Shown here piece by piece: positions 2,518 through 63,417 of a stretch of DNA of 64,000 nt (its first letter is position 1; every line of letters begins with the position of its first letter). The stretch comes from an uncultured virus (IMG/VR IMGVR_UViG_3300033121_001780) (taxonomy: Duplodnaviria > Heunggongvirae > Uroviricota > Caudoviricetes). Made by a program: the position numbers and the translations under genes. The notes beneath the pieces are model-generated. The model searched no databases, was not told the DNA's origin, and saw nothing but the letters and a program-made list of their open reading frames with translations. The DNA lies in the IMG/VR virus record IMGVR_UViG_3300033121_001780. One strand, 5' to 3'.

Positions 2518-2850
2518 GTGAAAGAACTGAACATAGATCTTATGAACAAAATGGGGTGGATAACCTATTCTCTCTCACGGGGAGTGGGCCTACCCCATTT
2601 GTTTGTAGATGATAAAATGGTCAAGTTCTTTATTAGAGACGAGAAGGACTTATATGTTATAAAAGAAACCAATCCAGATCAATATCTCTTTATTAAAGTC
2701 TTTAATGCTGATAATCCAATTCCAAAAATGGAAAAATGGAAATTCAATGATAATCAATCTATGTTTTCTCTGATTAAAGAGAACTTAGCCTGTAATAAAA
2801 AATATAAAAGAATACTTAAATTAAATTCGCTAGATGAAACGAGAAGTTAA
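2518..2850 (+). CDS. Hypothetical protein with C-terminal RxxK[IL]xx[IL] tag
   Basis: Ends KRILKLNSLDETRS. Confidence 0.65.
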   Translation: MKELNIDLMNKMGWITYSLSRGVGLPHLFVDDKMVKFFIRDEKDLYVIKETNPDQYLFIKVFNADNPIPKMEKWKFNDNQSMFSLIKENLACNKKYKRILKLNSLDETRS

Positions 2851-3394
2851 AGTCATTGCAATGTCACAAGCCCAGAGTCAAATGGGATCTTATGTAGTAA
2901 TTCTTTCTGAGATCAATGGATACAGAAAATTGCCTATTGTTGTGAAGACTCATGATGCTCAGCTAATAGCTTTGAAGATCGAGAATATTGATCCCCCAAA
3001 GCCAACTTCACATGATATAGTACATCAACTATCTAAAACATTCCATTTGGACTGTCAGGAGATCTATATACATAAAGTTTATGAGGGGATATTCTATTCC
3101 AAGGCCACTTTCTCTAATGGCATTGATGATATTGATATCGAAGTATCCTGTGGTGATGGAATTATAACCTCCCTAGGATTCGATTGCCCACTATATGTTA
3201 GTGAGGAAGTTCTTTCAACTTGTGGAATCACAACCACCGAAGATGGAGAACTTGTTGCTGATGATATGGACCAAGAAGAAAAGAGAGTGGTTTCATTGGA
3301 AGATCTTAAGCAAATGCTATCAGAGGCGCTTTCCAATGAGGATTATGAAATTGCAGCTGAGCTGCGAGACCAAATAGCAAAATTAGAATCGTAA
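2834..3394 (+). CDS. Bifunctional nuclease (DUF151-like) with C-terminal UVR motif
   Basis: YVVILSE..RKLPIVV, PTSHD, EGIFYS; C-terminal LSEALSNEDYEIAAELRDQI. Confidence 0.85.
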   Translation: MKREVKVIAMSQAQSQMGSYVVILSEINGYRKLPIVVKTHDAQLIALKIENIDPPKPTSHDIVHQLSKTFHLDCQEIYIHKVYEGIFYSKATFSNGIDDIDIEVSCGDGIITSLGFDCPLYVSEEVLSTCGITTTEDGELVADDMDQEEKRVVSLEDLKQMLSEALSNEDYEIAAELRDQIAKLES

Positions 3395-3398
3395 TCTA

Positions 3399-3743
3399 AT
3401 GAAAAGAGCTAGAATTCTCTATGAGACGGACATAAAGAATCATGATTATAACAGCAATAATATCAAATTTGGAGTTTATGGAGTCTTTGATACTAATGAT
3501 GTTAAATGGAAGTATTTCTTAATATCCTTCTATTATAGAGGAAAAGAAATTTCTACGAGCCCAGACCTATGTAAAGTTGTAGATCTTTCTCCATGGAATG
3601 TTGATTCTAATTGCAGAGAAATAGATTCTGTTGAATCTGGAATCACATTTATTCAAGAATATAAAATTAAATGGGAAACTGGATCAAACGATGTTAAGAG
3701 TAAAATAAGAGATGAGAAAATATCTAATATTCTAGATAAATAA
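3399..3743 (+). CDS. Hypothetical protein with C-terminal tag
   Basis: Ends KIRDEKISNILDK. Confidence 0.7.
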   Translation: MKRARILYETDIKNHDYNSNNIKFGVYGVFDTNDVKWKYFLISFYYRGKEISTSPDLCKVVDLSPWNVDSNCREIDSVESGITFIQEYKIKWETGSNDVKSKIRDEKISNILDK

Positions 3744-4358
3744 AAATCAAATTACTAGTTGGGGTTATGAATTGGATTTCATTGAAGCCGATCATTTTAT
3801 ATACTGGAAAAAATGCCTTTGTAAATTCCTTTTTAACATTTTCCATATATAATTTTCCCTCTTCAAATGAATCAAAATAGATATGTAGCCCGTGTTTGCC
3901 TTTTTTATCACATGATGGTTCTAATATAAGATCACAAGCCATTGCATTGTGTTCATAGTTAAAATCAGGATAGTCTCGATAGTCTTTTGATTGATTCCAT
4001 GGATCTTTGGAATCTTTCTTATGTATTTTTTTTGTATCCAAGCAAACTGATACATCATAGAGTCATTTTTTCCATCCATGCGGGGTGGGAAAACTCTTCT
4101 CCAATGTAAGAGGCTCCCAGCATATTCACTTTTTTTAAGATTATATGGCCCCGATCGGGCAGTAGCCACGCTGGGAGCCATCACGGGGACAGCCTTCCAT
4201 CCGTCGGTGTTCACGTGAGCGGACCATTTGCGGCACACCGAACATTCATACCGGACGGAGATCGTTCTATCCATGTAGTGCTTTGCGAACAGAAGTCCAT
4301 CCCTTTTCGCATCGCCACAGTGAGCGCAGAATGGGCCGTCTATGTAGGGGCTGATCAT
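3724..4358 (-). pseudogene. Chimeric/frameshifted ORF pair (3921..4358 and 3724..4041)
   Basis: GC-richer CxxC...CxxC N-terminus fused to AT-rich sequence; the two ORFs join by a -1 shift at an A8 run (4026-4033). Confidence 0.4.
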
Positions 4359-4402
4359 GGCAACTCAGGATCGTCGTTCGTCAGGGCGTTGCGTATATCT
4401 GT

Positions 4403-5066
4403 TGTTACCGGCAATGCAGCGACAGTGCTACCAACAACTGCTCCCCGATATATTTAGTGTATTGTGGCGGTATGCTTTGAGCCAATTCACCTTGCCCCAG
4501 CCAATACAAGCCGGTCATTTCCTGCACCAATCCAACACCGGAAAAATGCCCAACGTATTGAATAAATTCTCCGTCTTTTGGCCTTCTGCCCATCTTTGCA
4601 TTTGGTGCAGTATGTTCCGGGTGTAGCGGTGCTTTCAGTTCAATGTTGCTTTCAAATAGCCGATGCCTATAAGTTCTCATTCCAAACATTGAACCGCACA
4701 ATTCAATAGGGTTAATCAATGGGCTGCCCGGCACATTTTCAATTATGTAAGGCTTCCCGGTTTTAATCAACTCCCGCCTTGTTGCTTCAATCAAATCAAC
4801 ATACTCCTTTCCGGCTTTACGAAACTGCATTGAAGCCATACTGTAAGCTTGACAAGGCGGGCTTGCGTGTATCACGTCATATTCGTGAAAATGTGCTTTT
4901 AAGTATTCAATGGCATCGGCTTGTATGAAGTTTCCCCGGTGTTTTGGTTGCGGTTCAATATCAACACCCGTAACATCATATCCGGCTTGCTCATACCCAT
5001 ATCCTGCCCCACCGCCACAACAAAACAAGTCAAGCAGTTTGGGACGAGAATGCACTGCCGGTAACA
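4403..5066. repeat. 16-bp inverted repeat (15/16) flanking the methyltransferase core
   Basis: TGTTACCGGCAATGCA 4403-4418 vs TGCACTGCCGGTAACA 5051-5066. Confidence 0.8.
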
Positions 5067-9875: not shown

Positions 9876-9905
9876 TTGACCCTCGGAAACGGGGGTTAAT
9901 TTTTT
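9876..9905 (+). terminator. Intrinsic terminator
   Basis: TTGACCCTCG-GAAA-CGGGGGTTAA then T-run, directly after the stop. Confidence 0.75.
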
Positions 9906-9930
9906 GAACACATTCTGTTTTATAGATATA

Positions 9931-10254
9931 ATGGATATGCCATTACCCGTATTTACTGCAGGATCATCAGGATCTGTTGGACCATTATCTAATGGATTAA
10001 AAAAATCGTCAGTGGTCAATTCTGAATTGGTGATAAATATTCCAAAAATATTGGAACTAACAGAAGAAAAGAGATTGTTCATTGTCAAATTAATCAATAT
10101 GTATTTTGATTCCTTTAACGGAACATCGGGGCATATTGTGGCGGGTGGAATGAAATTAGATTCAATGTCTTCAAAAATACTAGAAGCAACATTAATTAGA
10201 TATTCCTATCTCATAAATGAGAGGGAGTCAAAAATAAACGATATTATAGAATGA
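9931..10254 (+). CDS. Hypothetical protein with C-terminal tag
   Basis: Ends NERESKINDIIE; ATG 9931 preferred over track start 9904, which lies in the terminator. Confidence 0.65.
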   Translation: MDMPLPVFTAGSSGSVGPLSNGLKKSSVVNSELVINIPKILELTEEKRLFIVKLINMYFDSFNGTSGHIVAGGMKLDSMSSKILEATLIRYSYLINERESKINDIIE

Positions 10255-11060
10255 TAAGTTGGATAGGAGGAAAGTCACAAATTTCCAAATGGATTATACC
10301 ATACATACCCACAGATATAGAAACCTATTGTGAGCCATTTTCAGGAGCATTTTGGGTCTATCTTAAAATGGATTTAGCTAGTTACCCCAACCTTAAAAAA
10401 ATTGTTTATAACGACTTTAATGACTATTTGGTGAATCTCTTTATGTCATCCAAAGATCATCAAAATTTTCATAAATTTTCTCTAGGATATAAGTCTCAGG
10501 ATAAAAATCTATTCTTAGATTTCCAAAGGAGGTTATTTACAGATAAAGAAGAGTATCAAATGCCAGATTTTGATAGGGCTGTAGGATTTGCATACTTAGC
10601 TACCCAAACATGGTCTGGAATATCTCCAAGCACTGGAAAATTTATAGATCTTAAGGGAAAATATAGGAGTAAGTTTGATACATTCAGAGATAAACTTAAG
10701 AATGATAAGTATACTCATAATCTTTCCAGAATAACAGATTTTGAGAATTTAGATTTCCAAGATGTTATTATCAAATATGATAATAAAGATGCCTTCTTTT
10801 ATATCGACGCCCCATACCATTTAACCGAACACTATTATTCAAATCATGAATTTGGTGGAGATGATCATGAGAGGTTAGCAAACTGCTTGAAATCCATCAA
10901 GGGTAGATTTGCAATGTCATATTACTACTTTGATAAATTAGAAAAATGGTTCCCAAAAAATGAATTTAAATGGGAGATTCAAGAATTCAATAAGGCTGCA
11001 ATGGCCACAAAGGGAAAATCCCAAACCAAGGGAATGGAAATATTAATAATGAATTATTAG
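10251..11060 (+). CDS. dam: Dam-like (D12 class) adenine DNA methyltransferase
   Basis: WIGGKS, YCEPFSG, YNDFN, FYIDAPY (DPPY variant). Confidence 0.85.
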   Translation: MISWIGGKSQISKWIIPYIPTDIETYCEPFSGAFWVYLKMDLASYPNLKKIVYNDFNDYLVNLFMSSKDHQNFHKFSLGYKSQDKNLFLDFQRRLFTDKEEYQMPDFDRAVGFAYLATQTWSGISPSTGKFIDLKGKYRSKFDTFRDKLKNDKYTHNLSRITDFENLDFQDVIIKYDNKDAFFYIDAPYHLTEHYYSNHEFGGDDHERLANCLKSIKGRFAMSYYYFDKLEKWFPKNEFKWEIQEFNKAAMATKGKSQTKGMEILIMNY

Positions 11061-11407
11061 TCTAAGTAGTCTAAGAGGTTGTCCAATCCGTCCTTTCTAT
11101 TTTTTAGAATTTTATATCTATCTTTAGTTTCATCATCCTTGCCCATATAATTTCCCCAATAGACTAAGGACCCATTCTCTAACTTATTCTTAGTGCATCT
11201 GTCACATATACCAATATACAAATAATATCCGTCCAGTATAGACCCATATCCAGCACTGATCGATGCAACCATCCCACCATCCCACGATTGCGTTTCCGGA
11301 TCCCATTTGGAATCTGGTATATTCTCAAGATTTAAAAGACCATCTAGTTTTATTTTAAATCCACACAAAACACAATCTATGGATCGAAATCTTGGCTTGG
11401 GATACAT
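11057..11407 (-). CDS. Hypothetical Zn-binding protein; degenerate C-terminal tag
   Basis: CVLC...ICDRC; ends RKDGLDNLLDYLD. Confidence 0.6.
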   Translation of the reverse strand: MYPKPRFRSIDCVLCGFKIKLDGLLNLENIPDSKWDPETQSWDGGMVASISAGYGSILDGYYLYIGICDRCTKNKLENGSLVYWGNYMGKDDETKDRYKILKNRKDGLDNLLDYLD

Positions 11408-11440: not shown

Positions 11441-11692
11441 ATGAAAGAAAGTTTAATCAAAGATTACGTATCAGGAATAGATTTCAGAGGAAATTGGGGT
11501 CTTTCTAAAATGAAAGAGGATATGAAAAGATTTATAGGTGAAGAACCAGGAATTGACGTCATTTGGGAGAAAGACGCCGTTTTAAATGAAGACACCGATG
11601 AACCAGAAATAATTGAGAGGGTAAAGAAATTGATTATTGTTTTCACTGATACAGATGAAAAGTATAAAAAATTGGAATTTTTAATACACTAA
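11441..11692 (+). CDS. Hypothetical protein
   Basis: 83-aa ORF; GATATATA 5 nt before ATG. Confidence 0.65.
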   Translation: MKESLIKDYVSGIDFRGNWGLSKMKEDMKRFIGEEPGIDVIWEKDAVLNEDTDEPEIIERVKKLIIVFTDTDEKYKKLEFLIH

Positions 11693-11922
11693 TGGATTTG
11701 GAAAACTATTATCTTGATATATCCGAAGTTAGTAAACTTAGTGAAAATGATAGATCAACGATTTATGATTACTACAAAGAAATGCTATTTTGCCAAGAAG
11801 ATCAAAGAGAAATAGTTGCTAAATCATTATTCAATACTCTACTTAAAAACAAATTTCTTATTTCTATAAGAGAGGAAAAAATAGATGGTATTATAAATGG
11901 AGATAACTCCCTCGATAATTGA
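11692..11922 (+). CDS. Hypothetical protein with C-terminal tag
   Basis: Ends SIREEKIDGIINGDNSLDN. Confidence 0.65.
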   Translation: MDLENYYLDISEVSKLSENDRSTIYDYYKEMLFCQEDQREIVAKSLFNTLLKNKFLISIREEKIDGIINGDNSLDN

Positions 11923-15253: not shown

Positions 15254-16831
15254 TCTTCCCTTTTATCTAGTTTTGATTATACACTTTATGGTAAAGTTAA
15301 AGGAATGAAGAAGAAATGGACTACTCTTTCAACTCTTCCGAATAGAATCAATGGAGAACTCTTAAATAGAATTAGATTCCAATCCAATTCAACTGATGTG
15401 GAAGTCAAGCGTGGGATAAATCCGAATATATTAGAATTATGGGAAAATGGTATTCTTAATGAGAGAGCTGGGAAAGTAAATCTTGATGAGAAAATTGAGG
15501 ATTACATTGGAATGGATATAGATACATTTAAATCATTTATTTCCTTAAGTATAAACGACTTCAAAAACTTTATTTCACTAACTAACGAAGAAAAGCAAAT
15601 TCTTCTAGATAAGCTATTCAATCTTGAGGTTATTAATATTTTGAATAATATTCTAAAGGAATTAAACAAGAATAATAAGATCAGAATGGCCTCCCTCGAT
15701 TCTGAGATTCTAACTCTTTCTGAATCTATTGACTCTATTCAAAAATCAATTGATAAATCAATTGAGAAAGAGAAGGAAAATATTCAAGTAGAGATTGATA
15801 AAATTAAAGAGGATATGGATTCAAAAAAAGAAGATTACATATCTATTAAAGACAAGATTGATAAGATTTCTCTAAAAAAAGATGAATTAGACAAAGAAAT
15901 TGAAACTGAGAAAAAACAATATATTATTCTACAAACAGATATAAAGGGAGTTCAAAAAGACATTGATTTATATGATTCTGGAAAATGCCCAACATGCCAA
16001 ACTGACTTCATATCAGATCATTTTGTGTCTTTACGTCAAAGTCTAGTTGATAAAAAGACTGGAATGGAGAAAATTAAGATTGAGCTGGAATCAAATATAA
16101 AATCTATAAGAGAAAAGCAGATAAAATTGCAAGAAATATCAGATAAGGCAACCAAAACTTATAATGATCTTAACTATTTTTTAAAAAATTGTAAAGCTCA
16201 AATAGATAAGCTAAATATGAAAAAGAAAAGTGATGAAGTTGGAAATGAATCACAAAACATCGTAGAGTTCAAAAATACGATTGATTCCCTAAAAGAGAAG
16301 AAAGTATTATCCGAAGATAATCTATCCATTTCCAAGAATAAAGAACTATTCTATAAAGAACTAAATAAAATATTTGGAGAAGAAGGTGTCAAAAAATCAA
16401 TTATATCTAGCATTATTAAACCAATAAATCACTTCGTTGCAGATAATGTTAAAAAGATGGGTCTTCAATTTGAGGTAGTATTGGATGAGACGTTCGCGGC
16501 TCAAATAAAACATTTAGGATCTGTAATTGATCATGAGACTTTAAGCACAGGAGAAACCAGAAGAGTTAATATCTCGATTCTAATAGCCTATTTGAAATTA
16601 ATTAGAACAAAGAAGTTCATCAACATTCTCTTTCTAGATGAGATATTCTCATCGATTGATTATTTGGGAGTTGAAGATATTTTAAGGTTATTAAAATCCT
16701 TTGCTTCGGAATATAAGATAAATATATTTGTAGTTCATCATGCCATTATGAATGAGGAGATTTTTGATAGAATAATCAGAATAAACAAAGACGTGTTCTC
16801 AAATATAGAAGAGGTAGAAATCCATGTCTAA
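14885..16831 (+). CDS. Split intein C-part (123 aa) + gp46/SbcC C-extein
   Basis: HN|S junction, coiled coils, Zn-hook CPTC, signature LSTGE, Walker B LFLDE, H-loop VVHH. Confidence 0.9.
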   Translation: MKFKVNLEKLSLLQNKISIIDRGIKVKSANGWKKIKNIGITSPNSEKIIIKTENFELIGSPLHKVKFSNKWNFLKDLLVGDYVDTIYGSQKLISVECDNIKEDLWDIEVDGEEYYSNGILSHNSSLLSSFDYTLYGKVKGMKKKWTTLSTLPNRINGELLNRIRFQSNSTDVEVKRGINPNILELWENGILNERAGKVNLDEKIEDYIGMDIDTFKSFISLSINDFKNFISLTNEEKQILLDKLFNLEVINILNNILKELNKNNKIRMASLDSEILTLSESIDSIQKSIDKSIEKEKENIQVEIDKIKEDMDSKKEDYISIKDKIDKISLKKDELDKEIETEKKQYIILQTDIKGVQKDIDLYDSGKCPTCQTDFISDHFVSLRQSLVDKKTGMEKIKIELESNIKSIREKQIKLQEISDKATKTYNDLNYFLKNCKAQIDKLNMKKKSDEVGNESQNIVEFKNTIDSLKEKKVLSEDNLSISKNKELFYKELNKIFGEEGVKKSIISSIIKPINHFVADNVKKMGLQFEVVLDETFAAQIKHLGSVIDHETLSTGETRRVNISILIAYLKLIRTKKFINILFLDEIFSSIDYLGVEDILRLLKSFASEYKINIFVVHHAIMNEEIFDRIIRINKDVFSNIEEVEIHV

Positions 16832-17129
16832 AATCATATTAAAATATCCAAATGATGGAAATCATATTCCGGGAGAATCAATTCTTTTGAAATTTGATTG
16901 GGATAAATGCATGGGCGCATATGAGTACGGAAGCAATATTAAGCCTATTAATCCATGGGATATTCGGCAAAATCCTATTTATAAACCAATAATAGATTCT
17001 ATTAAAAAATATGATAAATTGAATATACCAGCTATCTACCATTCGGATTTAGATGAACTATCTAGTGCCTTTATTATAGATACAATAGAAATAGAAAGGC
17101 ATCTGAAGCTCCAAAAACTGGATATATAA
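16824..17129 (+). CDS. Hypothetical protein with C-terminal tag
   Basis: Ends IERHLKLQKLDI. Confidence 0.65.
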   Translation: MSKIILKYPNDGNHIPGESILLKFDWDKCMGAYEYGSNIKPINPWDIRQNPIYKPIIDSIKKYDKLNIPAIYHSDLDELSSAFIIDTIEIERHLKLQKLDI

Positions 17130-17145: not shown

Positions 17146-17448
17146 ATGTTAAGCAATCTAACAACAACCAAGTCTACTATAGGCATAGACTACTATACTC
17201 AATGGTCTATAAGCAACCAACCAATTTGGATTAATTATCCGAATACTGTACCAAGCACAGCTCAAAATCCAGCATATGTAGACAGCTACACTACTCAATT
17301 ATCTTTGGATCAAGACACAATTGAATTTCTAGAAATGGTTCTATTGGCCATGGGAGTTGACATGAGCTACAGTCAATTTTTGATCTTATCTCCGTCAGAA
17401 AGAAAATCCCTAATTAGAAATATTAAAATAAGCAATATAACAAAATGA
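17146..17448 (+). CDS. Hypothetical protein with C-terminal tag
   Basis: Ends LIRNIKISNITK. Confidence 0.65.
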   Translation: MLSNLTTTKSTIGIDYYTQWSISNQPIWINYPNTVPSTAQNPAYVDSYTTQLSLDQDTIEFLEMVLLAMGVDMSYSQFLILSPSERKSLIRNIKISNITK

Positions 17449-17642
17449 TTATCATTGAGGTTGAAAACAAGGGATCGTCATCTATTGATAAAGCTCTTCG
17501 AAAGCTTAAAAAGAAAGTCGAAAATACGAAGATGATGAAGCAACTTCGTGAACGAAAGGAATACAAAAAGCCATCACAGAAAAAGAGAGAGACTAAAAGG
17601 AAGGCAATTTATGTAAAGGAAAAGTATGGAGATAAAGATTGA
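17445..17642 (+). CDS. rpsU: Ribosomal protein bS21 homologue
   Basis: IDKALRKLKKK...LRERKEYKKPSQKKR, 65 aa. Confidence 0.9.
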   Translation: MIIIEVENKGSSSIDKALRKLKKKVENTKMMKQLRERKEYKKPSQKKRETKRKAIYVKEKYGDKD

Positions 17643-17934
17643 TTCTATACGAAACGATAATATCTCCATTGAGATTATGTTTACCACGGTGGCCCAGTGT
17701 GTTTTTGCGACCGTATTTGAAAAATCTTATCCCGAAGAAAAGGAATCAATAATAAAGAAATATTCAAAAATAGTTGAATCTATTGTCAAGTCGTTCGCAT
17801 TTGAACACAATAGTCCACAGGTGAGAGAAATGATGAAATCTCTAATAGAAAATGCAGTTATTAGTGAGGTTACCAAGGATATTCGAGATTATAAAATCAG
17901 ATATATTTTAGATGGGCAGAAGAATTCTAAGTAA
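17626..17934 (+). CDS. Hypothetical protein with C-terminal tag
   Basis: Ends DIRDYKIRYILDGQKNSK. Confidence 0.65.
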   Translation: MEIKIDSIRNDNISIEIMFTTVAQCVFATVFEKSYPEEKESIIKKYSKIVESIVKSFAFEHNSPQVREMMKSLIENAVISEVTKDIRDYKIRYILDGQKNSK

Positions 17935-18361
17935 GGAAATTATCCTTTCTTCCCATTGGGAATCTATTAAGGGAATATCTAGTGCAGATGCATTTATTAT
18001 AAAAGATGAATGGTCGAGTCTATTTATGAAACATCTCCAAAGTATTGATAAATACCAAAACACAAGATTAATTGCTATTAATGATTATGGAAAAGATAAA
18101 GGAGTACAAGACTATGATTACAATCCACAATTATTACATATAAGTAACGTAATTATTAATCTAAATTTGAATCCTAGTTTAATCGACTATTATCTAGCGA
18201 AGAAAATTCTAAATGATTCCTTTGAGATAGATAGTACTTCTAAATTGGGAAGCATAAATCTCAGACAATATCTTGAAATGAGAAATAATCTAGTATCAAA
18301 ATTAGACAGTGATATTTTAGTGGAAAAAAGATGTGAAAAAATATCCCGGATTATTCAATGA
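17912..18361 (+). CDS. Hypothetical protein with C-terminal tag
   Basis: Ends EKRCEKISRIIQ. Confidence 0.65.
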   Translation: MGRRILSKEIILSSHWESIKGISSADAFIIKDEWSSLFMKHLQSIDKYQNTRLIAINDYGKDKGVQDYDYNPQLLHISNVIINLNLNPSLIDYYLAKKILNDSFEIDSTSKLGSINLRQYLEMRNNLVSKLDSDILVEKRCEKISRIIQ

Positions 18362-26908: not shown

Positions 26909-26947
26909 AGCTATCCGATTATATATTATTAAAAAGGTCATTTCTAT

Positions 26948-28687: not shown

Positions 28688-28746
28688 TGTCAACTCTTTC
28701 TCAAGTAAGATTGGATAAGATAAATGAATTGAGAATAGATGAATAG
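28687..28746 (+). CDS. 19-aa micro-ORF consisting almost only of the C-terminal tag
   Basis: TAATG overlap with previous stop; MSTLSQVRLDKINELRIDE. Confidence 0.4.
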   Translation: MSTLSQVRLDKINELRIDE

Positions 28747-40208: not shown

Positions 40209-40209
40209 C

Positions 40210-46054: not shown

Positions 46055-48697
46055 TTGATGGGCATTTATAGAGCTTTTGTACTATTTTTTTCTTCAATAC
46101 TACCACTGGGAATCTTTTCCCAGTGCTTAAACGCTGATTTCGAAAGCGGAAATTTCACTGGATGGCAAGGAACCACAGGAACGTGTTGTCCAATTCTTCT
46201 TCCTAACAATGGAATTATTGCCGGGCGACAGACAATAGTCGGCCCCGGATTTGATGGAAACACATGCGGAGGTCTTTCCCGAGTATATGCGGGAAATTTT
46301 GCGGCTAGACTTGGAAACGCTAATATAGGAGCTGAAGCTGAAGGATTATCATACACATTCGTTGTGTCTCCTACTGGAAGTCTTATAAGATATGCATATG
46401 CTGTCATATTTGAAAATCCTAACCACGGACCAGCCAATCAACCCAGATTCAGTTCCAGGGTAAGCTTATCCGATGGATCAACAATACCATGCACTGAATA
46501 TACTGTAAATGCTGATTCTAATTTAATTGGATGGCAATCATGCCCAACAATTGATAATAATGGAGATTTAATCGATATAGTTTGGAGAAATTGGTCAGAA
46601 GTCACTGTTGATTTATCTGCATATATAGGACAAACAGTCACTCTAGAATTCGAAACTGGTGATTGCACATTGGGCGGTCACTTCGGATATGCCTATCTGG
46701 ATGCAATTTATTGCATGGATAATAATATTGTAGTTGATTATTGCGAAGGAGATACTATCTCGACCCTAACAGCCCCCGATGGATTTTCAAGTTATTCCTG
46801 GGAAAATGGAGACACAACACAATCAGTTACTATAAATCCCAATGTTTGGGATAGCATCTACTGTGTGGTCACCACAACTACTGGATGCGAATTAACACTT
46901 ATTTCAGATGTAGACATAACCAATATTGAATCTAGTTTTACATATGAAGGACAGTGTGAAGGAATATTCGAATTTACAAACACATCAACTTCAACACAAG
47001 GAATAACTTCACACTATTGGAATTTCGGTGATGGAGGATTTTCCGATATAGAAAATCCAACACACATATTTACACCAGGTCATTGGGTTGCTTCATTGAC
47101 AACCACATCTGTTCAAGGATGTGTAGATGTATCTGTACAAGAAATAGATGTATATCCATATCCTACAGCAGATTTTATATCAAATGATGTTTGTCTTGGA
47201 GATGAGTCGAATTTTACTAATCTATCAACTGTGATCCCTGGATATGGCTTGAATTATTTATGGGATCTTATTGAAACAACGTCATCAATTCAATCACCAT
47301 CGTACACATATCTAAACAGCGGATCCTATAATGTCAATTTAATTATAACAACACAAGGATCAATTTGTGGTGATACAATAACTAAAACCATAAATATCAG
47401 AGAAAATCCAATATCAAATTTCTCAACTAGCAATAATTGCGAAGGCGATAGTTCTCTATTTATCAACAATTCAAATTTACCAACATGGTCAACAAATCAG
47501 TTTATATGGACCTTCGGAGATGAATCAACATCAACTTCATTTTTAGATTCTGTATGGCATTTCTATTCTGAATATGGTATTTATCCAGTCAGTCTTCAGA
47601 TACTTTCCTCAGATGGGTTAATTATTTGTGAATCAACATACATCGATGAAATCATAATTCATCCTAATCCTGTGGCCAATTTTGAAGTTGCAAATGATTG
47701 CATCAACTCAAATATACAATTTACAAATTTGAGCACCATATCGACGGGACAAATATCATCCTACAATTGGAATCTTGGAAATGGATATTCAGACGAGGAG
47801 AATCCATTATCAATATATGATCAACCTGGATCTTTCTTGATTGAACTATCAATTTTATCAGACTTTGGATGTGTAGATAGTACTCAGAATATTTTAGAAA
47901 TATATCCACTTTCAGATGTATCATTTTCACTATCTGAAGAATCAGGATGTCCACCATTAACAATATCATTTAATGATAATTCCACCAATGATGTATCAAC
48001 ATGGGTATGGAATTTTGGTGATGGTAATTTCTCCTTCGATCAAAATCCAATACATACTTATGATATCAGTGGATCGTATGTAGTTACTTTACAGGTGACT
48101 ACAAGTGATAATTGTTCATCATCTAATACATCACCAATTGAAATTACAGTGTATCCAAATCCGATAGCTGGGTTTAACATATCCCCAACTCATCTCAGTG
48201 AGTTTGATCCACAAGTGCATATTCAAAATACTTCAACTGGAGCATCCTCTTATAATTGGAATTTTGGAGATGGATCATTTAGCTTCGAATCCAATCCACT
48301 TATTCATGTTTTTAATAGTGCTGGTAATTATCAAATCACACTAAATGTTGAAAATGAATTTGGATGTATTGATATGATGTTTACAACAGTTGATATTGAT
48401 CCAGTTTATACATTCTATATACCAAACTCATTTACTCCTGATGGAGATGGCAACAATGAAATTTTCTTTGGAAGTGGCATCGGATATACTGATATAACAA
48501 TGAGAATTTTCAACAGATGGGGAGAACTGATATTTGATGAAACTTCAAATAATGGTCATAGTGATATAAAACCATATTGGGATGGTACTTCAATGAATAT
48601 AGATTGTCAAATAGATGTATATATCTATCAATTTTTAGTGACTGATATATTTGGGGAAACTCATATGTACAATGGAAAGGTTACTTTAATAAGATAA
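46055..48697 (+). CDS. Secreted PKD-repeat protein with gliding-motility-associated (T9SS type B) C-terminal domain
   Basis: Signal peptide ..FSQC; repeated WNFGDG...P.H.Y; YIPNSFTPDGDGNNE, IFNRWGE, WDG, G.VTLIR. Confidence 0.9.
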   Translation: MMGIYRAFVLFFSSILPLGIFSQCLNADFESGNFTGWQGTTGTCCPILLPNNGIIAGRQTIVGPGFDGNTCGGLSRVYAGNFAARLGNANIGAEAEGLSYTFVVSPTGSLIRYAYAVIFENPNHGPANQPRFSSRVSLSDGSTIPCTEYTVNADSNLIGWQSCPTIDNNGDLIDIVWRNWSEVTVDLSAYIGQTVTLEFETGDCTLGGHFGYAYLDAIYCMDNNIVVDYCEGDTISTLTAPDGFSSYSWENGDTTQSVTINPNVWDSIYCVVTTTTGCELTLISDVDITNIESSFTYEGQCEGIFEFTNTSTSTQGITSHYWNFGDGGFSDIENPTHIFTPGHWVASLTTTSVQGCVDVSVQEIDVYPYPTADFISNDVCLGDESNFTNLSTVIPGYGLNYLWDLIETTSSIQSPSYTYLNSGSYNVNLIITTQGSICGDTITKTINIRENPISNFSTSNNCEGDSSLFINNSNLPTWSTNQFIWTFGDESTSTSFLDSVWHFYSEYGIYPVSLQILSSDGLIICESTYIDEIIIHPNPVANFEVANDCINSNIQFTNLSTISTGQISSYNWNLGNGYSDEENPLSIYDQPGSFLIELSILSDFGCVDSTQNILEIYPLSDVSFSLSEESGCPPLTISFNDNSTNDVSTWVWNFGDGNFSFDQNPIHTYDISGSYVVTLQVTTSDNCSSSNTSPIEITVYPNPIAGFNISPTHLSEFDPQVHIQNTSTGASSYNWNFGDGSFSFESNPLIHVFNSAGNYQITLNVENEFGCIDMMFTTVDIDPVYTFYIPNSFTPDGDGNNEIFFGSGIGYTDITMRIFNRWGELIFDETSNNGHSDIKPYWDGTSMNIDCQIDVYIYQFLVTDIFGETHMYNGKVTLIR

Positions 48698-48720: not shown

Positions 48721-49812
48721 TTATGCTAATGTTAGGAATATTTTCCTATTTGTTCTATCAACGGCCAATACCTTAACTGCAATCTTATCATCAGAATTTA
48801 ATTTTTTATTAATTTTGTCCATTTCTGATGTATGAATCAAACCAATAGTCTCATCATCCAGAGAAATTAAAGTACCAAATTGCTTCTTTTCCTTCACAAT
48901 ACCATCTATAATTTGTCCATTTTTAATGGTATCCCAAAGAGTTTCTCTGAGAATTTGAGTTAGAATAATCTTATCTTTAATAATTTCCTTAATGTAAAAC
49001 TCAATTTGAGTTCCTGGTTTAATCTCATTCAATCTATTGGACCAGTCTTCATGGATGTTTGCTTTGTGAATCATTCCGGTAAGACATTCATTGAATTCAA
49101 CAAATACACCAAAAGGTGTAGTTCCTGTGACTCTTCCTGTATAGACTTTCTCGTATTCAAGCTCTTTGATAGCGTCAGGAATAAGAGTTTTGAGATATTT
49201 TCTACGGCTTACTATATAAGTGCCTTCCTCTTTCGAGTAAGATTCTATCATAACTGGAAGAAATTGACCAATAATTGAATCAGGATCATATAATTTATTA
49301 ATCCCAGCAAGAGTATTTGGCATAAATCCCGGCAGGGTAATTCCACCATGTGCAATCTCAATATCATACCCGGCTGGAGTTGATGATTTAATATTTGCAA
49401 CTACAATTACATCCTCATCAAGAGATTTTAGAGATTGGTGGGCCATATTTTCATATATCTCACATATGGATCCACGAATCATAAAATTATCATTATCAAC
49501 AGACGATATAAAAACATCAATTTTATCACCAATGTTCAAATTTTTGAGATATTTATTTTCAGATTGTTTATTTTCAACTCGAATGAAATCTTTATATCCA
49601 TCTATAATAAAGCAATGTTGATTCGATGATATTCCAACATATTTCGCATTTACGACTGATCCATTCTTTGGAATCTCCAATTGAAGATTTCCATATGAAG
49701 ACATGTCTAATTTATATCTAGATTGTATTTTTTTTGCTTTGAATCCTCTTTTGAATCGAAAATCCTCCATTTGAAGAAGTTCCCAATCCACTGATGTTGT
49801 AGTTTCTGTCAT
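48721..49812 (-). CDS. Multi-S1-domain protein (ribosomal protein bS1-like)
   Basis: LPGFMP, IVSRR, GRVTGTTPFGVFVE..GMIHK, FGTLI..GLIHTSE, VKVLAVD..RKIFLT. Confidence 0.8.
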   Translation of the reverse strand: MTETTTSVDWELLQMEDFRFKRGFKAKKIQSRYKLDMSSYGNLQLEIPKNGSVVNAKYVGISSNQHCFIIDGYKDFIRVENKQSENKYLKNLNIGDKIDVFISSVDNDNFMIRGSICEIYENMAHQSLKSLDEDVIVVANIKSSTPAGYDIEIAHGGITLPGFMPNTLAGINKLYDPDSIIGQFLPVMIESYSKEEGTYIVSRRKYLKTLIPDAIKELEYEKVYTGRVTGTTPFGVFVEFNECLTGMIHKANIHEDWSNRLNEIKPGTQIEFYIKEIIKDKIILTQILRETLWDTIKNGQIIDGIVKEKKQFGTLISLDDETIGLIHTSEMDKINKKLNSDDKIAVKVLAVDRTNRKIFLTLA

Positions 49813-49851: not shown

Positions 49852-50223
49852 TTATTTTAGTTTATTGAATATCATAAAGTCTCTTATTCTTGCTGCTTCT
49901 TCGTAATCCTCATTTAATATTGCCTTCGATAATAGCTCAAGAAGATCTTTTTTAAGAGTTTCTTTGTCTTTTTTAGATTTTATCAATTCTAGATCCTCAA
50001 CAAGAGAAGAATAAAAGGATTTCATCTCAGTAATATTAGAAAAATAAAAGCTCTCATCTCCTATCTTTGATAGATTGATATTAGATAGTTTTTCATTTGA
50101 TTCTATTTTTGAAAGAAACTCATCTGTAAAGGCCTTATTCTCTAATAGAAATCTAGAAAGATGGTTAGGTCTATTCTTAAATGCATTTAGAAGAGTGATA
50201 AGATTCTTATAATTGTTATCCAC
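49852..50223 (-). CDS. Hypothetical protein with C-terminal UVR motif
   Basis: LSKAILNEDYEEAARIRD. Confidence 0.7.
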   Translation of the reverse strand: MDNNYKNLITLLNAFKNRPNHLSRFLLENKAFTDEFLSKIESNEKLSNINLSKIGDESFYFSNITEMKSFYSSLVEDLELIKSKKDKETLKKDLLELLSKAILNEDYEEAARIRDFMIFNKLK

Positions 50224-56316: not shown

Positions 56317-59300
56317 TTATTTCGCTATTGTATTATAGGTTTTTGGCTTTGCTCCGAATGTAACTTTAGCTCTGTTTAGAGTAAATTTAACAGTGAAGGT
56401 GAAAGGTCTATTTTGATTTTCGTCCTCAACAAAGAATCTAAGCTTCTTAATGTGCTTAACGGTCTGTGAAACCTTATTAAGATCAATGTATTCATAATCT
56501 TTTCCAGCTTGTGTATTATCAAGAGCGTTCATCTTGAAGTAAATGTGTATGGGTATAATAATAGCATTTTCATCGCCACCCTTGACAGACCTAATTTTAT
56601 CCTCATTGGTCTCAACTAAGTTTTGTAGATCAGGGGTAACCGGATGAACTGTTGATAGCAATTTGGTAGTGGATCCAACGCTAACAACTGGATCAATCCA
56701 TTTTGTAGAATCTAGAAGAGAATTATTACTAGACACGAAAGCCATTGCTAAATTTTCAGAATATCCTACATTGTATTCAACCAGCCCAAGAACATTTGTT
56801 ATTGAATTACTATTCAGTGATGTAAAGCTATTACCAATGTTTTCAGATAGCTTTGATAGTTCAGTTTGTGTTACAGTGTCATAATTAACAGACCAAACGA
56901 ACATGTTATCTAAATGTGTTCTAGAAGATCCAGACACATCTGTAAATAGCAACTCATCCTGATTATTCACCCAGAATGTCTGAGGCGCAGATGGGCTATA
57001 AATAGCTGTATTGGAAAGATATTGCCTATTGGAAAGAAGACCCAAATCCGAATCAATAGATTTGTTCTTAACTTTTAAGATGAAATCCTTAATAACATAA
57101 ATATTATTAGCAAATACCCTTCCGCTAGGAACTCCAGAACCAGTAAATGGATCTAAATATTCCTCACACTCAATATTAAATTCGGTTTCCGAATTATTAC
57201 CGATTGTAAATTCTTGATTGTTTCTAATTATGATAATTTCAATTTCACCCTTAGCTCTAGAAATTTTCTCTTCTAAAGACTTAACCCTATCTTCTAATTT
57301 TTTAAGATGTTGGAGCAAATCCAAAACAACGCCATTTTCATCTTTGAATCCGGATAGAATTGATTCTGCAGTGTGATAAAATGACTTATTATTTAATATT
57401 ATAGTTTCGGATAAATGATCATCTAATCCACGAGCTGTTAACTCACTGTCCACTTTGACCTTAACTTCCTCCCTAGAGGCCTCTTCAAGAATAAATTGAT
57501 TATCCAGTAGAACATTGTTCAAATCATCTGGAAAATCAATTGAAATAACATCACTCCACTCGGATTCAACAGGAGATTCTGGCCAACCAACTTCAGAGAT
57601 AGATTTAACTCTTAATTCTACTCTCTCATTTGGACTTATGGCAATATCAATTTGATTTATATTTGGAGTCTCAGCACTTTCCAAATCTTCAATTTCCCAT
57701 GTATACGCAAGAGTTTCTAAATTGTAATCTCTTTTTCTTGCATCTGTTTTGAATTCATTCCAATTTGAGAAAGCTGCGGTCTTTTTTTCTTTCTTGTTAT
57801 TAGATAATTTAAATGTTTCTACAGAAGGCTCTCGACCATCTTTAGAAATGTATCTATATTGAACTCTAAATTGAACAACCTCTTGTGGAAGGGTCCCTCT
57901 TTTAGCAACAGGCTCCGGAATATCCCAGAATCCTCTAAGTCTATATTTCGGATCTACTTTTGTTGATGATGATCTACTTAGAGTAAGAATTTCTTGATTT
58001 GTTGTTTCCAGCAGTTTGGATTTAGAGTTCTTCTTTTTACTTAGTTCATCTACCTCAATTTCGAATTGTTTTTTCTGAGACTCAGAAGTAAATCTAGTCG
58101 CCTTTAATTTCTTATTTCTACTTTCTATGGCTTCTTGTATTTGAGAAATTTCTGATTTAAGAGAAACTGTATAATTATGTTTCGTCTTCATCAAATTAGA
58201 ATCAGGATTATCTGTAAGATGCTTATTTATTTGAACAACCTTAAAATTATCAGAGCTCATAAGAGGAATATTTGGTTGACCAGCTAGCCTATTAGGAATC
58301 TTCTTAGTAACTTGATCCTGTAGAAATTCACCATAATCATAAACAAAATCAATGTAAAATTGATCCATTGTAGTTCCATTATCGGCTCTCAAATCATTGG
58401 TAAAAAATCCAGTCCCCCCTGACCAATTTTTAGATATTAAATTGGAATCAGCATTCATTGGTTTGACAAAGACCACGTTCCTTTCTCCATATCCAATGCT
58501 TATCCTAGCTCTCTTTCTATATACTAATGGTGAATAAATCTTAAGAGTCCCTACTCCGACAGGAATAGGTTGCAGTCCCTCCACTCTCTCCAATCGTAAT
58601 CTAGGATTTGATTCTGTGTTTGAAATTTCAACAATTTTATACCTTGTTGAAGAATTTTGAAGATTGGGAATTAATTCACTTCCAATGGCAAGTTGTCGAA
58701 GTTCTCTGGTGTCATTTATAATGTAATCTAATGTATTAACATGATACCAGAGCTTTCTATTGAGAGCATCTTCCTCAATTTTAATAACATTAAAAACTCC
58801 GTCATATAAAACAGCATTTGGCTCCAAATCAAACATTTGCTCATCATATTTAGGATTCAAAGGATCAACAATTCCTGTGGTTGTTTGGTACCAATTTTCA
58901 AATTCTTGAATGTCTATTCCACTAATTCCTCTATATAGACTATTAAAGCTATCAAGGGCAGATTGGCCTAGTGTGGTCAATGTTCCATCGGGATTACTAG
59001 CAAAATCAACAATATATCTTCTAGATAGAATTTTCCTTACATTATCCTCTACTTTATCTCTTAAATCCAATTCTACAAATAAACTTGGATTCAACATGCT
59101 CTCGAAAAACCAATTAACTTGAGATTTGAATTGTGATACTATTCCGATATCATTAATGGAATTTGGCTCCTTATTAAGATCGACTGTTATAACCTTCTTA
59201 AATTTATTAGTAGATGATGTTTGAATTAGAGCCCCACCAGAGTCAATATTATAAAGTGAATTAAGAGAATTATTAAGCCTCTCAATTTCTGATTTCAGAT

Positions 59301-59478
59301 ATGTAAAAGATGGTAAATTATAGGTCTTTATAACACCATCCATATCAAAAATTCTAACCTCGACCGATGGTTCCTGTGTCGTGGATAAAGAGTTTATTTT
59401 GGATAATATTTCTAATATATTTTTGTTATATCCCACAACTTGATCGGCAACAACGGGAAAGGAACTTTTAATAGGCAT
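56317..59478 (-). CDS. Large putative virion structural protein
   Basis: 1053 aa, coiled coils, FN3-like VELRVKSISEVGWP..ESEWS; AATATATA upstream; first gene of a - strand operon. Confidence 0.6.
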   Translation of the reverse strand: MPIKSSFPVVADQVVGYNKNILEILSKINSLSTTQEPSVEVRIFDMDGVIKTYNLPSFTYLKSEIERLNNSLNSLYNIDSGGALIQTSSTNKFKKVITVDLNKEPNSINDIGIVSQFKSQVNWFFESMLNPSLFVELDLRDKVEDNVRKILSRRYIVDFASNPDGTLTTLGQSALDSFNSLYRGISGIDIQEFENWYQTTTGIVDPLNPKYDEQMFDLEPNAVLYDGVFNVIKIEEDALNRKLWYHVNTLDYIINDTRELRQLAIGSELIPNLQNSSTRYKIVEISNTESNPRLRLERVEGLQPIPVGVGTLKIYSPLVYRKRARISIGYGERNVVFVKPMNADSNLISKNWSGGTGFFTNDLRADNGTTMDQFYIDFVYDYGEFLQDQVTKKIPNRLAGQPNIPLMSSDNFKVVQINKHLTDNPDSNLMKTKHNYTVSLKSEISQIQEAIESRNKKLKATRFTSESQKKQFEIEVDELSKKKNSKSKLLETTNQEILTLSRSSSTKVDPKYRLRGFWDIPEPVAKRGTLPQEVVQFRVQYRYISKDGREPSVETFKLSNNKKEKKTAAFSNWNEFKTDARKRDYNLETLAYTWEIEDLESAETPNINQIDIAISPNERVELRVKSISEVGWPESPVESEWSDVISIDFPDDLNNVLLDNQFILEEASREEVKVKVDSELTARGLDDHLSETIILNNKSFYHTAESILSGFKDENGVVLDLLQHLKKLEDRVKSLEEKISRAKGEIEIIIIRNNQEFTIGNNSETEFNIECEEYLDPFTGSGVPSGRVFANNIYVIKDFILKVKNKSIDSDLGLLSNRQYLSNTAIYSPSAPQTFWVNNQDELLFTDVSGSSRTHLDNMFVWSVNYDTVTQTELSKLSENIGNSFTSLNSNSITNVLGLVEYNVGYSENLAMAFVSSNNSLLDSTKWIDPVVSVGSTTKLLSTVHPVTPDLQNLVETNEDKIRSVKGGDENAIIIPIHIYFKMNALDNTQAGKDYEYIDLNKVSQTVKHIKKLRFFVEDENQNRPFTFTVKFTLNRAKVTFGAKPKTYNTIAK

Positions 59479-61904: not shown

Positions 61905-61908
61905 AAGC

Positions 61909-62412
61909 TTGATAGAGGTTATTTGTACTACTAAAAATTGCTTAAAAATAAAATTTCTTGAAACTCTACCACGAATTCTCAATGGTGAAAATTCAATATG
62001 GATAACAACATTTCAAAAGGAATTGAATATCATGATAATGAATTTTTTACTTGGTATAATAATTGGATTTGGATTGCTGCATGGATTCTATTTTATTAGA
62101 AACAAAATATATAGAGAGGTACGTAAGGGAGTATTCACTACTAGACTGGTTGATAATACTGATCAAACAAACTTCATTGTGAATTACGAAATAGAAGAGA
62201 TAGCAAGATCCAATAAAAAATCCAAAATTAAAATCTTGTCCTTTAATTCCGAAATTTCAAAATACAATGCTGCCAATTGGAAAGATGCAATTACAAATTT
62301 CTACGATAATGCATGGATTAAAACCTCAGAAATCGATTGGATAAAATATACAAACGATCCAAACGATCCCAAGTTTATTAGGGATAAAAAAATAAACCAA
62401 ATACTAAAATGA
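61909..62412 (+). CDS. Membrane-anchored hypothetical protein with C-terminal tag
   Basis: TM segment; ends FIRDKKINQILK; true start probably near 62032. Confidence 0.6.
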   Translation: MIEVICTTKNCLKIKFLETLPRILNGENSIWITTFQKELNIMIMNFLLGIIIGFGLLHGFYFIRNKIYREVRKGVFTTRLVDNTDQTNFIVNYEIEEIARSNKKSKIKILSFNSEISKYNAANWKDAITNFYDNAWIKTSEIDWIKYTNDPNDPKFIRDKKINQILK

Positions 62413-62717
62413 TGCAGAAAGACTATTGGAATGAAAAAGAGAAATATCTACAAAAAATATCAGATCTAGAAAATAGGATCCAACAACAGAAAAATAACCA
62501 AATTTCTGTTGAAATCGGATCATATTATCTAGTATCATTTAATGATAAAATAGAAATGGTTCGAGTATCAGCTCTAACTAAAAAATGCGTGCTGTTTGAA
62601 TTTTTACAAACAGAAAAGGATCCACAATGGTTTCTGACGTATAAAAATTATACTATAATTGAAGAATTATCAACAGAATTTATCAGAGACTTCAAAATCG
62701 AGCAAATATCCGAATGA
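62409..62717 (+). CDS. Hypothetical protein with C-terminal tag
   Basis: Ends FIRDFKIEQISE. Confidence 0.7.
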   Translation: MMQKDYWNEKEKYLQKISDLENRIQQQKNNQISVEIGSYYLVSFNDKIEMVRVSALTKKCVLFEFLQTEKDPQWFLTYKNYTIIEELSTEFIRDFKIEQISE

Positions 62718-63049
62718 TGTTTTGGTGTGTTATAGGCCTTCATAAATGGCAGTATCATCATAAAATGGTTCCATATATTTTACCTGGAAATAGAACATAT
62801 AATGTTGGAACACATTTTCGATGCTGTAAAGAATGTGACAAGGAACAAAGAAGAACAAACAGGCCAATAAGTGTAGGAAATGAATGGCTGACTATTAAGT
62901 CAGGAAATTCCTTCGATAAATTAATGATAAAATTTGCAAAATGGTACCAATCAATGAATTCTTCAATACAAGAATCTAAAAATCAACCAATTCAAAACGA
63001 AAACACCGAAATCAAAACACAGAAAAATCAACCAAGAAAAATAACCTAA
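62714..63049 (+). CDS. Hypothetical Zn-binding protein
   Basis: CVIGLHKW...RCCKEC. Confidence 0.55.
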   Translation: MMFWCVIGLHKWQYHHKMVPYILPGNRTYNVGTHFRCCKECDKEQRRTNRPISVGNEWLTIKSGNSFDKLMIKFAKWYQSMNSSIQESKNQPIQNENTEIKTQKNQPRKIT

Positions 63050-63078
63050 ACTTAACCAAATTATTCTGTATAATAAGA

Positions 63079-63417
63079 ATGGACTCTGTAATTAAAATAT
63101 TTGGCGCCAAGTCTTGGCATGATACAGTTTCCATAGTAGGAAATAAAGAAGCTCTAATAAGATTTCGAGATCTTATTCAGGATGCTATAACAAAAGGATT
63201 TTCAGATGGTGAGTTTCTAGAATCAGATGGTGAAGGATACAACATAGAAATTAAATTACATGATTGGGGATTCTATTCCGATGGATGGAACAATTTACCA
63301 GTTCATTATTCTGATGATCTTTCATCGGAGAAAAATTGGAAATATTGGGAAAATTTACATGATTTGATGACAAGTGGGAGGCGAGATAGTAAGATTGAAA
63401 AATTGGAAGGAGAGTAA
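63079..63417 (+). CDS. Hypothetical protein with C-terminal tag
   Basis: IVGNKEAL, SDGEGY; ends GRRDSKIEKLEGE. Confidence 0.7.
   Translation: MDSVIKIFGAKSWHDTVSIVGNKEALIRFRDLIQDAITKGFSDGEFLESDGEGYNIEIKLHDWGFYSDGWNNLPVHYSDDLSSEKNWKYWENLHDLMTSGRRDSKIEKLEGE

Follow-up and report, generated by a model that had tools for sequence, protein, structure and literature searches.

A C-terminal peptide shared by small, largely unrelated proteins of T4-type giant phages: a candidate docking tag

Short peptides within proteins of otherwise different construction act as addresses in several well-known systems. Hsp100/Clp unfoldases are reached through tethers and degrons, among them the tail of SspB that docks on the N-domain of ClpX, the ssrA tag, and MecA, which engages ClpC. 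ESCRT-III proteins carry C-terminal MIT-interacting motifs that engage the MIT domain of the AAA+ ATPase Vps4, sliding clamps are bound by the tails of T4 gp43, gp55 and gp33 (on gp45) and by PIP boxes (on PCNA), and further addresses are found in the cargo-loading peptides of encapsulins and the capsid-targeting sequence of T4. Described here is another such peptide, the motif R-x-x-K-[IL]-x-x-[IL], which lies near the C-terminus of 27 small proteins encoded in a 64,000-nucleotide stretch of a larger phage genome, that of an uncultured virus of the Caudoviricetes (IMG/VR record IMGVR_UViG_3300033121_001780). This stretch is called the window, and all window counts cover it at its full length; the peptide is called the tag, and the proteins that end in it carriers.

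A six-frame scan of the window found the motif at all 27 positions where a sequence-only reading of the same DNA had placed it, so that every strict C-terminal case is present; the coordinates given in that reading are the starts of open reading frames (ORFs), and 25 of them stand, the other two differing by the call of the first start codon (9931 against 9904, and 40210 against 40183). ORFs were called greedily, longest first, giving 93 that cover 94% of the window; because such gene calls are crude, the ORF denominators are approximate, and on this count 27 of 93 ORFs (29%) carry the strict motif near the C-terminus. Shuffling each protein 2000 times gave a mean of 0.10 C-terminal matches and a maximum of 2, shuffling of the last 20 residues only gave a mean of 0.31 and a maximum of 3, and the real window ORFs hold 3 internal strict matches. 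The motif is followed by one to nine residues in all 27 carriers and by one to three in 21 of them. Carriers make up 27 of the 53 plus-strand ORFs of 170 amino acids or fewer, and the strict tag is absent from all 25 ORFs longer than 170 amino acids and from all 24 on the minus strand. The restriction to the plus strand, correctly noted within the window, is a local matter, since in related phages the tag follows gene direction on both strands. The C-terminal excess over internal positions recurs in related giant phages, and the shared C-terminal tag on small proteins is real.

By analogy with the systems above the tag would be a hub-docking peptide, unusual in scale. With Clp adaptor tethers and degrons it would share a short C-terminal peptide on proteins with different bodies and a single AAA+ machine, here a candidate only, and the phages concerned themselves encode ClpC, ClpP and ClpS. 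It departs from them in that known adaptors use an N-domain that is missing from the phage ClpC, in its presence on 10% or more of the proteome, a far larger scale than that of Clp adaptor sets, and, to our knowledge, in its sequence, which is unlike any known Clp tether. MIT-interacting motifs resemble it as terminal amphipathic helices, present on several proteins, with conserved Leu/Ile and Arg/Lys on one face (the helix here being that of an AlphaFold model), but they are eukaryotic or archaeal and belong to one protein family. Clamp-binding tails would be comparable as short linear C-terminal motifs that dock many partners on one hub, yet the replication and transcription enzymes of the window are, like all of its longer ORFs, untagged, and spacing and charge differ. 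Encapsulin cargo peptides are likewise short terminal addresses on unrelated proteins, with a shell of HK97 type; unlike the case for encapsulin and T4 capsid signals, the carriers are not encoded beside capsid genes, and a phage with a different head uses the tag. A search of published full texts, supplements aside, located no description of such a tag, in line with the sequence-only reading, which was aware of no such phage system. An adaptor-like protein for ClpCP is reported from phage SPO1 (PMC6873191); the consulted portion of a survey of jumbo phages (PMC7824862) names phage ClpP, ClpS, ClpA/X, MoxR-vWA and DnaJ and does not contain the word 'degron', and neither 'Clp' nor 'C-terminal' occurs in the main text of PMC7162821.

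In full the tag reads [K/L/I/V]-[S/E/Q]-x-[I/L/E]-R-[D/E/N]-x-K-[I/L]-[N/D/K/E]-x-[I/L]-[L/G/I/F]-x-COOH, with no conservation upstream of position -4 and with the stop two residues behind the motif in 100 of 156 carriers. With the other motif positions held constant, 176 of the 179 C-terminal cases have Arg at position 1 and none has Lys there, and position 5 is Leu in 97, Ile in 79 and Val in one, with position 4 more tolerant (Lys 176, Arg 14, others 70). Positions 2 and 6 are mostly acidic, and Gly at position 9 is seen only where position 5 or 8 is Leu. Five codons encode the Arg in the window, as had been noted (AGA 15, CGA 6, AGG 4, CGG 1, CGT 1), and the codons of the conserved tag residues vary freely among window carriers. 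In a 476-kb relative, G001, the Lys of position 4 is encoded by AAA 60 times and AAG 18 times, against 59.4 and 18.6 expected from genome usage, and the Arg by AGA, CGT and CGA; the deviations there are that Arg is encoded by CGT/CGA, and Ile/Leu at positions 5 and 8 by A-ending codons, moderately more often than expected. Because codon use is that of the genome, Lys never takes the place of Arg at position 1 and the bodies are not related to one another, the comparison supports selection on the peptide rather than on a DNA word, as the sequence-only reading had suggested. Matches to a tag profile at 10 bits or more fall at the C-terminus rather than internally in each of four tag-bearing sequences (62 against 2, 24 against 1, 12 against 3, and 18 against 0; 116 against 6 in total), and none occurs anywhere in the related sequences G006 and G007.

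A structural prediction was obtained for the family of the membrane-anchored carrier at 61909-62412 on the plus strand (167 amino acids by the first start codon, 126 in the form on record; RDKKINQI at 62380, two-residue tail). Alignment of this protein with six relatives shows that every member keeps the tag together with a membrane anchor. The AlphaFold model places a body with a predicted local distance difference test (pLDDT) score of about 90 before a coil (residues 104-112) and a C-terminal helix (residues 113-125) that is the tag, with pLDDT 63-68; the window copy has six extra residues in the coil linker. As modelled, the anatomy of the family is that of a tethered docking helix, and the amphipathic helix proposed from the sequence holds at the level of prediction, as a free terminal helix with the conserved residues on one face. 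A helical wheel would put Arg1, Lys4, Ile5, Ile8 and Leu9 on that face and leave positions 2, 6, 7 and 10 polar or acidic. The fold of the body found no match (best E value 0.22), and a search with the window carrier of a set of 5.8 billion proteins returned only the protein itself, in shorter form.

The reach of the tag was followed outward from the window, which encodes an NAD ligase, a sigma factor, a J-domain protein, Hsp20, S1- and L7/L12-like proteins, an RNA ligase and methylases. Two window proteins have type IX secretion C-terminal domains (28109-28687, Por_Secre_tail; 46055-48697, PKD repeats and CHU_C), and such phage-encoded domains indicate a Bacteroidota host. Megablast against deposited phages found no close DNA relative of the window; its ligase matches 14 viral contigs of up to 476 kb, and nine of 15 ligase neighbourhoods contain at least one carrier. 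The largest, G001, encodes a T4-type Gp23 capsid protein and a Gp20 portal, and its capsid protein is 69% identical to that of two uncultured GenBank phages (642 and 635 kb) and 52-53% identical to that of three others (636-735 kb). Phages of 635-735 kb with a predicted Bacteroidetes host would fit the largest 'Mahaphage' clade genomes as the main text of PMC7162821 presents them. Strict carriers number 78 of 657 ORFs in G001, 32 of 545 in G002, 19 of 252 in G005 and 103 of 988 in LR756502.1, where 35 of the 103 sit in the last 50 kb, and relaxed C-terminal forms add 39, 22, 8 and 76 respectively; the tag is thus on 6-12% of ORFs in the subclade in its strict form and on roughly 10-18% with relaxed forms. 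Related AT-rich controls are nearly free of it (LR756501.1, 1/1036; G006, 0/167; G007, 0/95). Enriched in the four relatives and nearly missing from the controls, the tag is by these comparisons the mark of one subclade among the T4-type giant phages of Bacteroidota.

When enriched C-terminal patterns were sought blind, LR756502.1 yielded the tag again, and the 735-kb sister LR756501.1 yielded a different motif, DPYGEExW, at 41 C-termini with tails of 0-4 residues, with additional internal copies in larger proteins (loci L087-L123, for example 145891-146127, 552409-555297 and 697593-698165). DPYGEExW is absent from the window and from every tag-bearing sequence, and the two related giant phages therefore use different terminal addresses. 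An exact-codon version of the tag turned up at 41 sites in the viral collection, of which 27 lie in open frames; taken with their 10-kb flanks, 26 of the 41 loci contain between one and 20 carriers and the other 15 contain none, most of the tag-bearing loci being fragments of the same clade. One tag user lies outside it: in G008, a small phage represented by a 19.9-kb contig estimated to be 64% complete, with a 375-amino-acid portal, small and large terminase and virion proteins, six of 33 ORFs are tagged, the tag profile of the window gives four matches (E values from 1.6e-4 to 6e-3), and only three ORFs have a giant-phage homologue at E <1e-5. A further phage, G009, is not counted as a tag user, because 10.9 kb of this complete 32-kb phage yielded one strict instance and no profile match. 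Also in G008, a 247-amino-acid protein (L226, 10847-11590), for which PHROGs gives a weak late sigma factor match, shares 50% identity over its last 117 residues with a 121-amino-acid protein conserved in the giant phages.

Apart from the tag, the carriers have little in common. The 27 window bodies, with the tag removed, show no significant mutual similarity (best body-to-body E value 0.009), and the 105 carriers of the window and G001 form 100 BLAST clusters at E <1e-3. Paralogy was seen for a few carriers, between 34052 and 32939 within the window and in two small G001 clusters. Searches of Pfam and PHROGs found no family common to carriers, in agreement with the earlier description of the carriers as largely unrelated. 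Above the Pfam cut-off, the 77 G001 carriers searched match DUF2158 once, DUF1660 twice and nothing else; the UVR motif (PF02151) is matched by none of these 77 and by none of the 31 window proteins searched, and no carrier matches the Pfam models for type IX secretion C-terminal domains (Por_Secre_tail, CHU_C). The 259 strict carriers of five tag-bearing sequences are 103 amino acids long at the median; 18 reach 200 amino acids or more, 11 have two or more CxxC pairs and 10 have a transmembrane segment by a crude measure. Any homologue at all was found for eight of the 27 window carriers in five related genomes and for 75 of the 259 overall, and the 102 best cross-genome homologues inside tag-bearing genomes comprise 74 with the strict tag, 17 with a relaxed form and 11 with none. 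Judged by these comparisons, the bodies are fast-evolving accessory proteins on which the tag is retained where homologues exist.

Some tagged proteins are copies of virion proteins: a 249-amino-acid carrier of G001 is a partial copy of the major capsid protein, a 61-amino-acid carrier of LR756502.1 copies the C-terminal end of the capsid protein, and the DPYGEExW proteins of LR756501.1 include copies of two capsid-protein segments, of a repeat protein from the gene next to that of the capsid protein, and of the end of a 1283-amino-acid protein. No resemblance to a virion protein is seen in any of the window's 27 carriers, and tagged virion-protein copies are a minority of carriers. A sub-type made up of very basic ORFs of 42-62 amino acids, sometimes in tandem, ends in R-[KM]-x-K-I-K-[RKN]-I-[FY] (G001 434186-434657, 127466-127636 and 181803-181976; G002 377613-377865 and 383700-383828).

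The window carriers, all on the plus strand, begin with those at 2518-2850 (110 amino acids; RILKLNSL at 2809, five-residue tail), which has a tagged homologue in G001, and at 3399-3743 (114 amino acids; RDEKISNI at 3708, three-residue tail), which ends a plus-strand run before a convergent gene and has a tagged homologue in LR756502.1. They are followed by 9904-10254 (116 amino acids; RESKINDI at 10222, two-residue tail) and by 11692-11922 (76 amino acids; REEKIDGI at 11869, nine-residue tail), in which the next ATG lies 4 nucleotides past the tag and which has tagged homologues in G001, G002 and G005. Four more lie close together, at 16824-17129 (101 amino acids; RHLKLQKL at 17097, two-residue tail), 17146-17448 (100 amino acids; RNIKISNI at 17416, two-residue tail), 17626-17934 (102 amino acids; RDYKIRYI at 17884, eight-residue tail, again with an ATG 4 nucleotides past the tag) and 17912-18361 (149 amino acids; RCEKISRI at 18329, two-residue tail), the stop of the last overlapping the start of the J-domain protein gene (18358-19071) and its homologues in G005 and LR756502.1 lacking the strict tag. 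Between these and the next group lies 29291-29488 (65 amino acids; REEKLETL at 29438, eight-residue tail).

Further along lie 32275-32556 (93 amino acids; RDLKIDQI at 32521, three-residue tail), 33806-34015 (69 amino acids; RNTKIDGI at 33983, two-residue tail), 34052-34375 (107 amino acids; RDSKISAI at 34343, two-residue tail), whose body is related to that of 32939-33238, and 34383-34667 (94 amino acids; RKEKINKI at 34614, nine-residue tail), where an ATG once more follows 4 nucleotides past the tag. The carrier at 34642-35100 (152 amino acids; RELKINEI at 35068, two-residue tail) has no close downstream start and, used as a query among viral contigs, found no relative. Next come 35960-36208 (82 amino acids; RQKKIDNI at 36176, two-residue tail) and a run of four genes, 37243-37455 (70 amino acids; RDSKIDQI at 37423, two-residue tail), with a zinc-ribbon match below the Pfam cut-off, 37452-37799 (115 amino acids; REKKIDHI at 37767, two-residue tail), with a tagged homologue in LR756502.1 (E value 1e-28), 37796-38131 (111 amino acids; RKEKIDSI at 38102, one-residue tail) and 38128-38334 (68 amino acids; RDSKIGGI at 38299, three-residue tail), after which the next ORF is convergent, on the minus strand. 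Beyond them are 39013-39249 (78 amino acids; RNHKIDTI at 39217, two-residue tail), 40183-40536 (117 amino acids; RSEKIDNI at 40504, two-residue tail), which has a second, internal match (REDKINTI at 40240), and 41050-41442 (130 amino acids; REIKLDKL at 41407, then the three-residue tail GIK), these last two each followed by a convergent ORF. The remaining carriers are 44139-44396 (85 amino acids; RKYKIDKI at 44361, three-residue tail), 45568-45981 (137 amino acids; RGQKIDDI at 45934, seven-residue tail), the membrane-anchored protein already described, 62409-62717 (102 amino acids; RDFKIEQI at 62685, two-residue tail) and 63079-63417 (112 amino acids; RDSKIEKL at 63382, three-residue tail).

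Three of the four degenerate forms listed by the sequence-only reading fit the relaxed pattern, namely 11057-11407 on the minus strand, which ends in RKDGLDNLLDYLD, and on the plus strand 33320-33619 (ending RQKQLESILR, with Lys replaced by Gln) and 36205-36492 (ending RNKILHYILS); the fourth, 32939-33238 on the plus strand (ending LRGDALDAIV), is a degenerate form by eye only, with a body homologous to that of carrier 34052-34375. In a 21-codon frame between two genes, RLDKINEL occurs at 28708-28731, four codons before the stop, and may be the remnant of a lost carrier. The window also encodes a 138-amino-acid protein with an L7/L12 C-terminal domain and no C-terminal tag (43726-44142) and, on the minus strand, a 363-amino-acid protein with S1 domains (48721-49812), and two ORFs without any Pfam match, of 2625 amino acids (19064-26941) and 1053 amino acids (56317-59478).

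The reading favoured here, held at a probability of roughly 0.55, is that the tag is a C-terminal docking peptide for one shared, putative reader. The tag would form a short amphipathic helix behind a flexible linker, and the face made up of Arg1, Lys4, Ile/Leu5, Ile/Leu8 and Leu9 would be read by one partner with an acidic and hydrophobic groove; each body would supply a specific activity or target and the tag a common address. That a single reader exists, and which protein it is, we infer; the tag may act as a degron, an AAA+ adaptor site or a compartment or packaging signal, the roles put forward by the sequence-only reading. The leading candidate would be Hsp100/Clp-type machinery, either that of the host or the phage's own N-domain-less ClpC with ClpP, with the carriers as its adaptors or timed substrates, and this identification is a tentative one, held with low confidence. 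More doubtful still is a particular form of it, in which the tagged mini-proteins would be a library of adaptors that all serve one unfoldase or protease. Every body would then bind a target of its own, which could be a host protein of defence or housekeeping or one of the self-assembling virion proteins of the phage itself, and the tag would hand that target to ClpC/ClpP-type machinery through lineage-specific pairs of tag and reader, RDxK[IL]xx[IL] here and DPYGEExW in the sister. Virion-protein targets are hinted at by the tagged partial capsid copies and by a weakly tail-tube/Hcp-like protein with a tag-like tail encoded beside ClpC.

The Clp genes of these phages bear on the identity of such a reader. 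The phage ClpC aligns to residues 149-800 of Bacillus subtilis ClpC (E value 4e-240), without the N-domain and with the UVR-type middle domain and the VGF loop kept; it is present, 79-88% identical, in all six tag-bearing genomes tested (G001-G005 and LR756502.1), and metagenomes contain it in abundance. No separately encoded Clp_N domain was found in G001-G005. ClpP was found in G001, G002, G004, G005 and LR756502.1, and tag-bearing phages also encode ClpS, Hsp70 and two J-proteins. The ClpC of the tag-free sister LR756501.1 is 42% identical and keeps its N-domain, and ClpP was not found in that genome. In G001 the ClpC gene is the third of a trio (283741-286775; L030:3741-6775) consisting of a 177-amino-acid protein, a 115-amino-acid protein and the N-domain-less ClpC, which starts with an acidic patch, and this order is kept in G002-G005 and LR756502.1. 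Neither of the two conserved upstream genes has a Pfam family. The 115-amino-acid protein, with a beta-rich predicted fold and weak Hcp or tail-tube matches (best E value 3e-3), ends in the tag-like ERRDEIIDELLN plus 6-11 residues, which matches the tag at positions 1, 2, 5, 6, 8, 9 and 10 and has Ile or Thr, not Lys, at position 4. In G007 the ClpC gene is split, its two parts being separated by about 2.2 kb (69281-73501; L075), with ORFs of 524 and 397 amino acids in and around the gap, an arrangement that may reflect an intron or intein insertion. Two untagged window proteins end in UVR motifs (2834-3394, and 49852-50223 on the minus strand), one of them fused to a bifunctional-nuclease domain; aligned with the middle domain of the phage ClpC, they share only the generic UVR motif, weakly (E values 0.008 and 0.04).

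Other candidates fared less well. The MoxR-like AAA ATPase of the window (376-1497), which the sequence-only reading had put forward as a possible partner, was rejected, as a homologue is present in only one of five related tag-bearing contigs, and phage Hsp70 was rejected as a universal reader on its absence from G002. No MIT-like reader domain was seen, with no search aimed at one. Of 188 conserved proteins of the tag-bearing phages, the tag-free sister lacks 80, a number too large to single out a reader. Since the unrelated small phage uses the tag and has no Clp genes, the reader is more likely to be encoded by the host, or to be a surface common to host and phage versions of ClpC, and either arrangement would fit all observations.

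Several observations weigh against the docking reading or against Clp as its reader. No reader was found among the candidates examined; an N-domain-less ClpC is encoded by tag-free G007 as well, the tag-bearing G003, which is 95% complete, yielded no ClpP, and the 19.9 kb of G008 contain no Clp-type AAA domain. The approximate ORF denominators belong here as well, as do two features of the tagged genes themselves: 76 of the 142 small carriers, about half, run into the next start on their strand and a further 11 end no more than 10 nucleotides from it, which may reflect an added or alternative role in translation, and A-ending Ile/Leu codons are in mild excess at positions 5 and 8.

The best-surviving alternative, itself improbable, dispenses with a reader altogether and holds that the amphipathic helix is sufficient in itself, sticking to the inner membrane or bundling with other tags. 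The amphipathic pattern, the use of the tag by an unrelated small phage and the failure to find a reader would all be accommodated in this way, but a self-sufficient helix does not explain why Arg at position 1 is never Lys (0/179) or why position 5 is nearly restricted to Ile and Leu; moreover, the acidic positions 2 and 6 are poor for membrane binding, the tag is strictly C-terminal, and ten residues are short for a stable bundle.

Less probable again is a translation signal, in which the peptide in the ribosome tunnel, or the messenger RNA itself, would pause termination and promote re-initiation at an overlapping next gene. Such a signal would accord with a host phylum that seldom relies on Shine-Dalgarno pairing, and it gains, beyond the overlapping starts and the A-ending codons just given, from the nearly fixed distance between tag and stop and from the 19 of 44 carriers with tails of at least five residues whose next start lies within 8 nucleotides past the tag, as at 11692, 17626 and 34383. 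Overlapping starts are, however, common in packed phage operons anyway, synonymous codon use is otherwise that of the genome, and tails vary from 0 to 9 residues. Furthermore, 55 of the 142 carriers have no start within 10 nucleotides (22 face a convergent gene and 33 have gaps of more than 10 nucleotides), among them the window carriers at 3399, 38128, 40183 and 41050, which end plus-strand runs before convergent genes; of 215 carriers with short tails, 38 lack any start on their own strand within 200 nucleotides. Because those 55 carriers lack a coupled start, translation coupling is kept as a minor rival and not as the explanation.

To the same low degree the tag may be a virion loading signal that sends small proteins into the capsid or onto its scaffold. 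These are T4-type phages with a Gp23 capsid protein and a Gp20 portal, a terminal peptide common to unrelated proteins is what such cargo would carry, and there is one tagged partial copy of the major capsid protein in each of G001 and LR756502.1, with pieces of virion proteins among the DPYGEExW proteins of the sister. Against this, the absence of virion-like proteins from the window carriers is complete, there is no linkage to shell genes, the carriers clustering in accessory regions such as the end of the LR756502.1 genome, no protease site is conserved ahead of the tag, and the small phage that uses the tag has a different, much smaller portal. Least probable by far is that the carriers are one family of diverged paralogues, or that recombination has spread a 3' DNA module. 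The few paralogous carriers of the window and G001 would speak for this, and the 100 clusters among 105 carriers, the lack of conservation upstream of position -4 and the freely differing codons oppose it.

Most genes of giant phages are small orphans without an assigned function. If at least a tenth of them share one address, read as a docking tag, the problem would divide into one reader and the contribution of each body, which would offer a handle on hundreds of genes. Sister phages with different tags, and a small unrelated phage that reuses this one, provide contrasts by which the putative reader can be traced. Were that reader a protease or unfoldase, the system would amount to targeted protein disposal or remodelling run by the phage, and the ten-residue tag could also become a portable tool for Bacteroidota.

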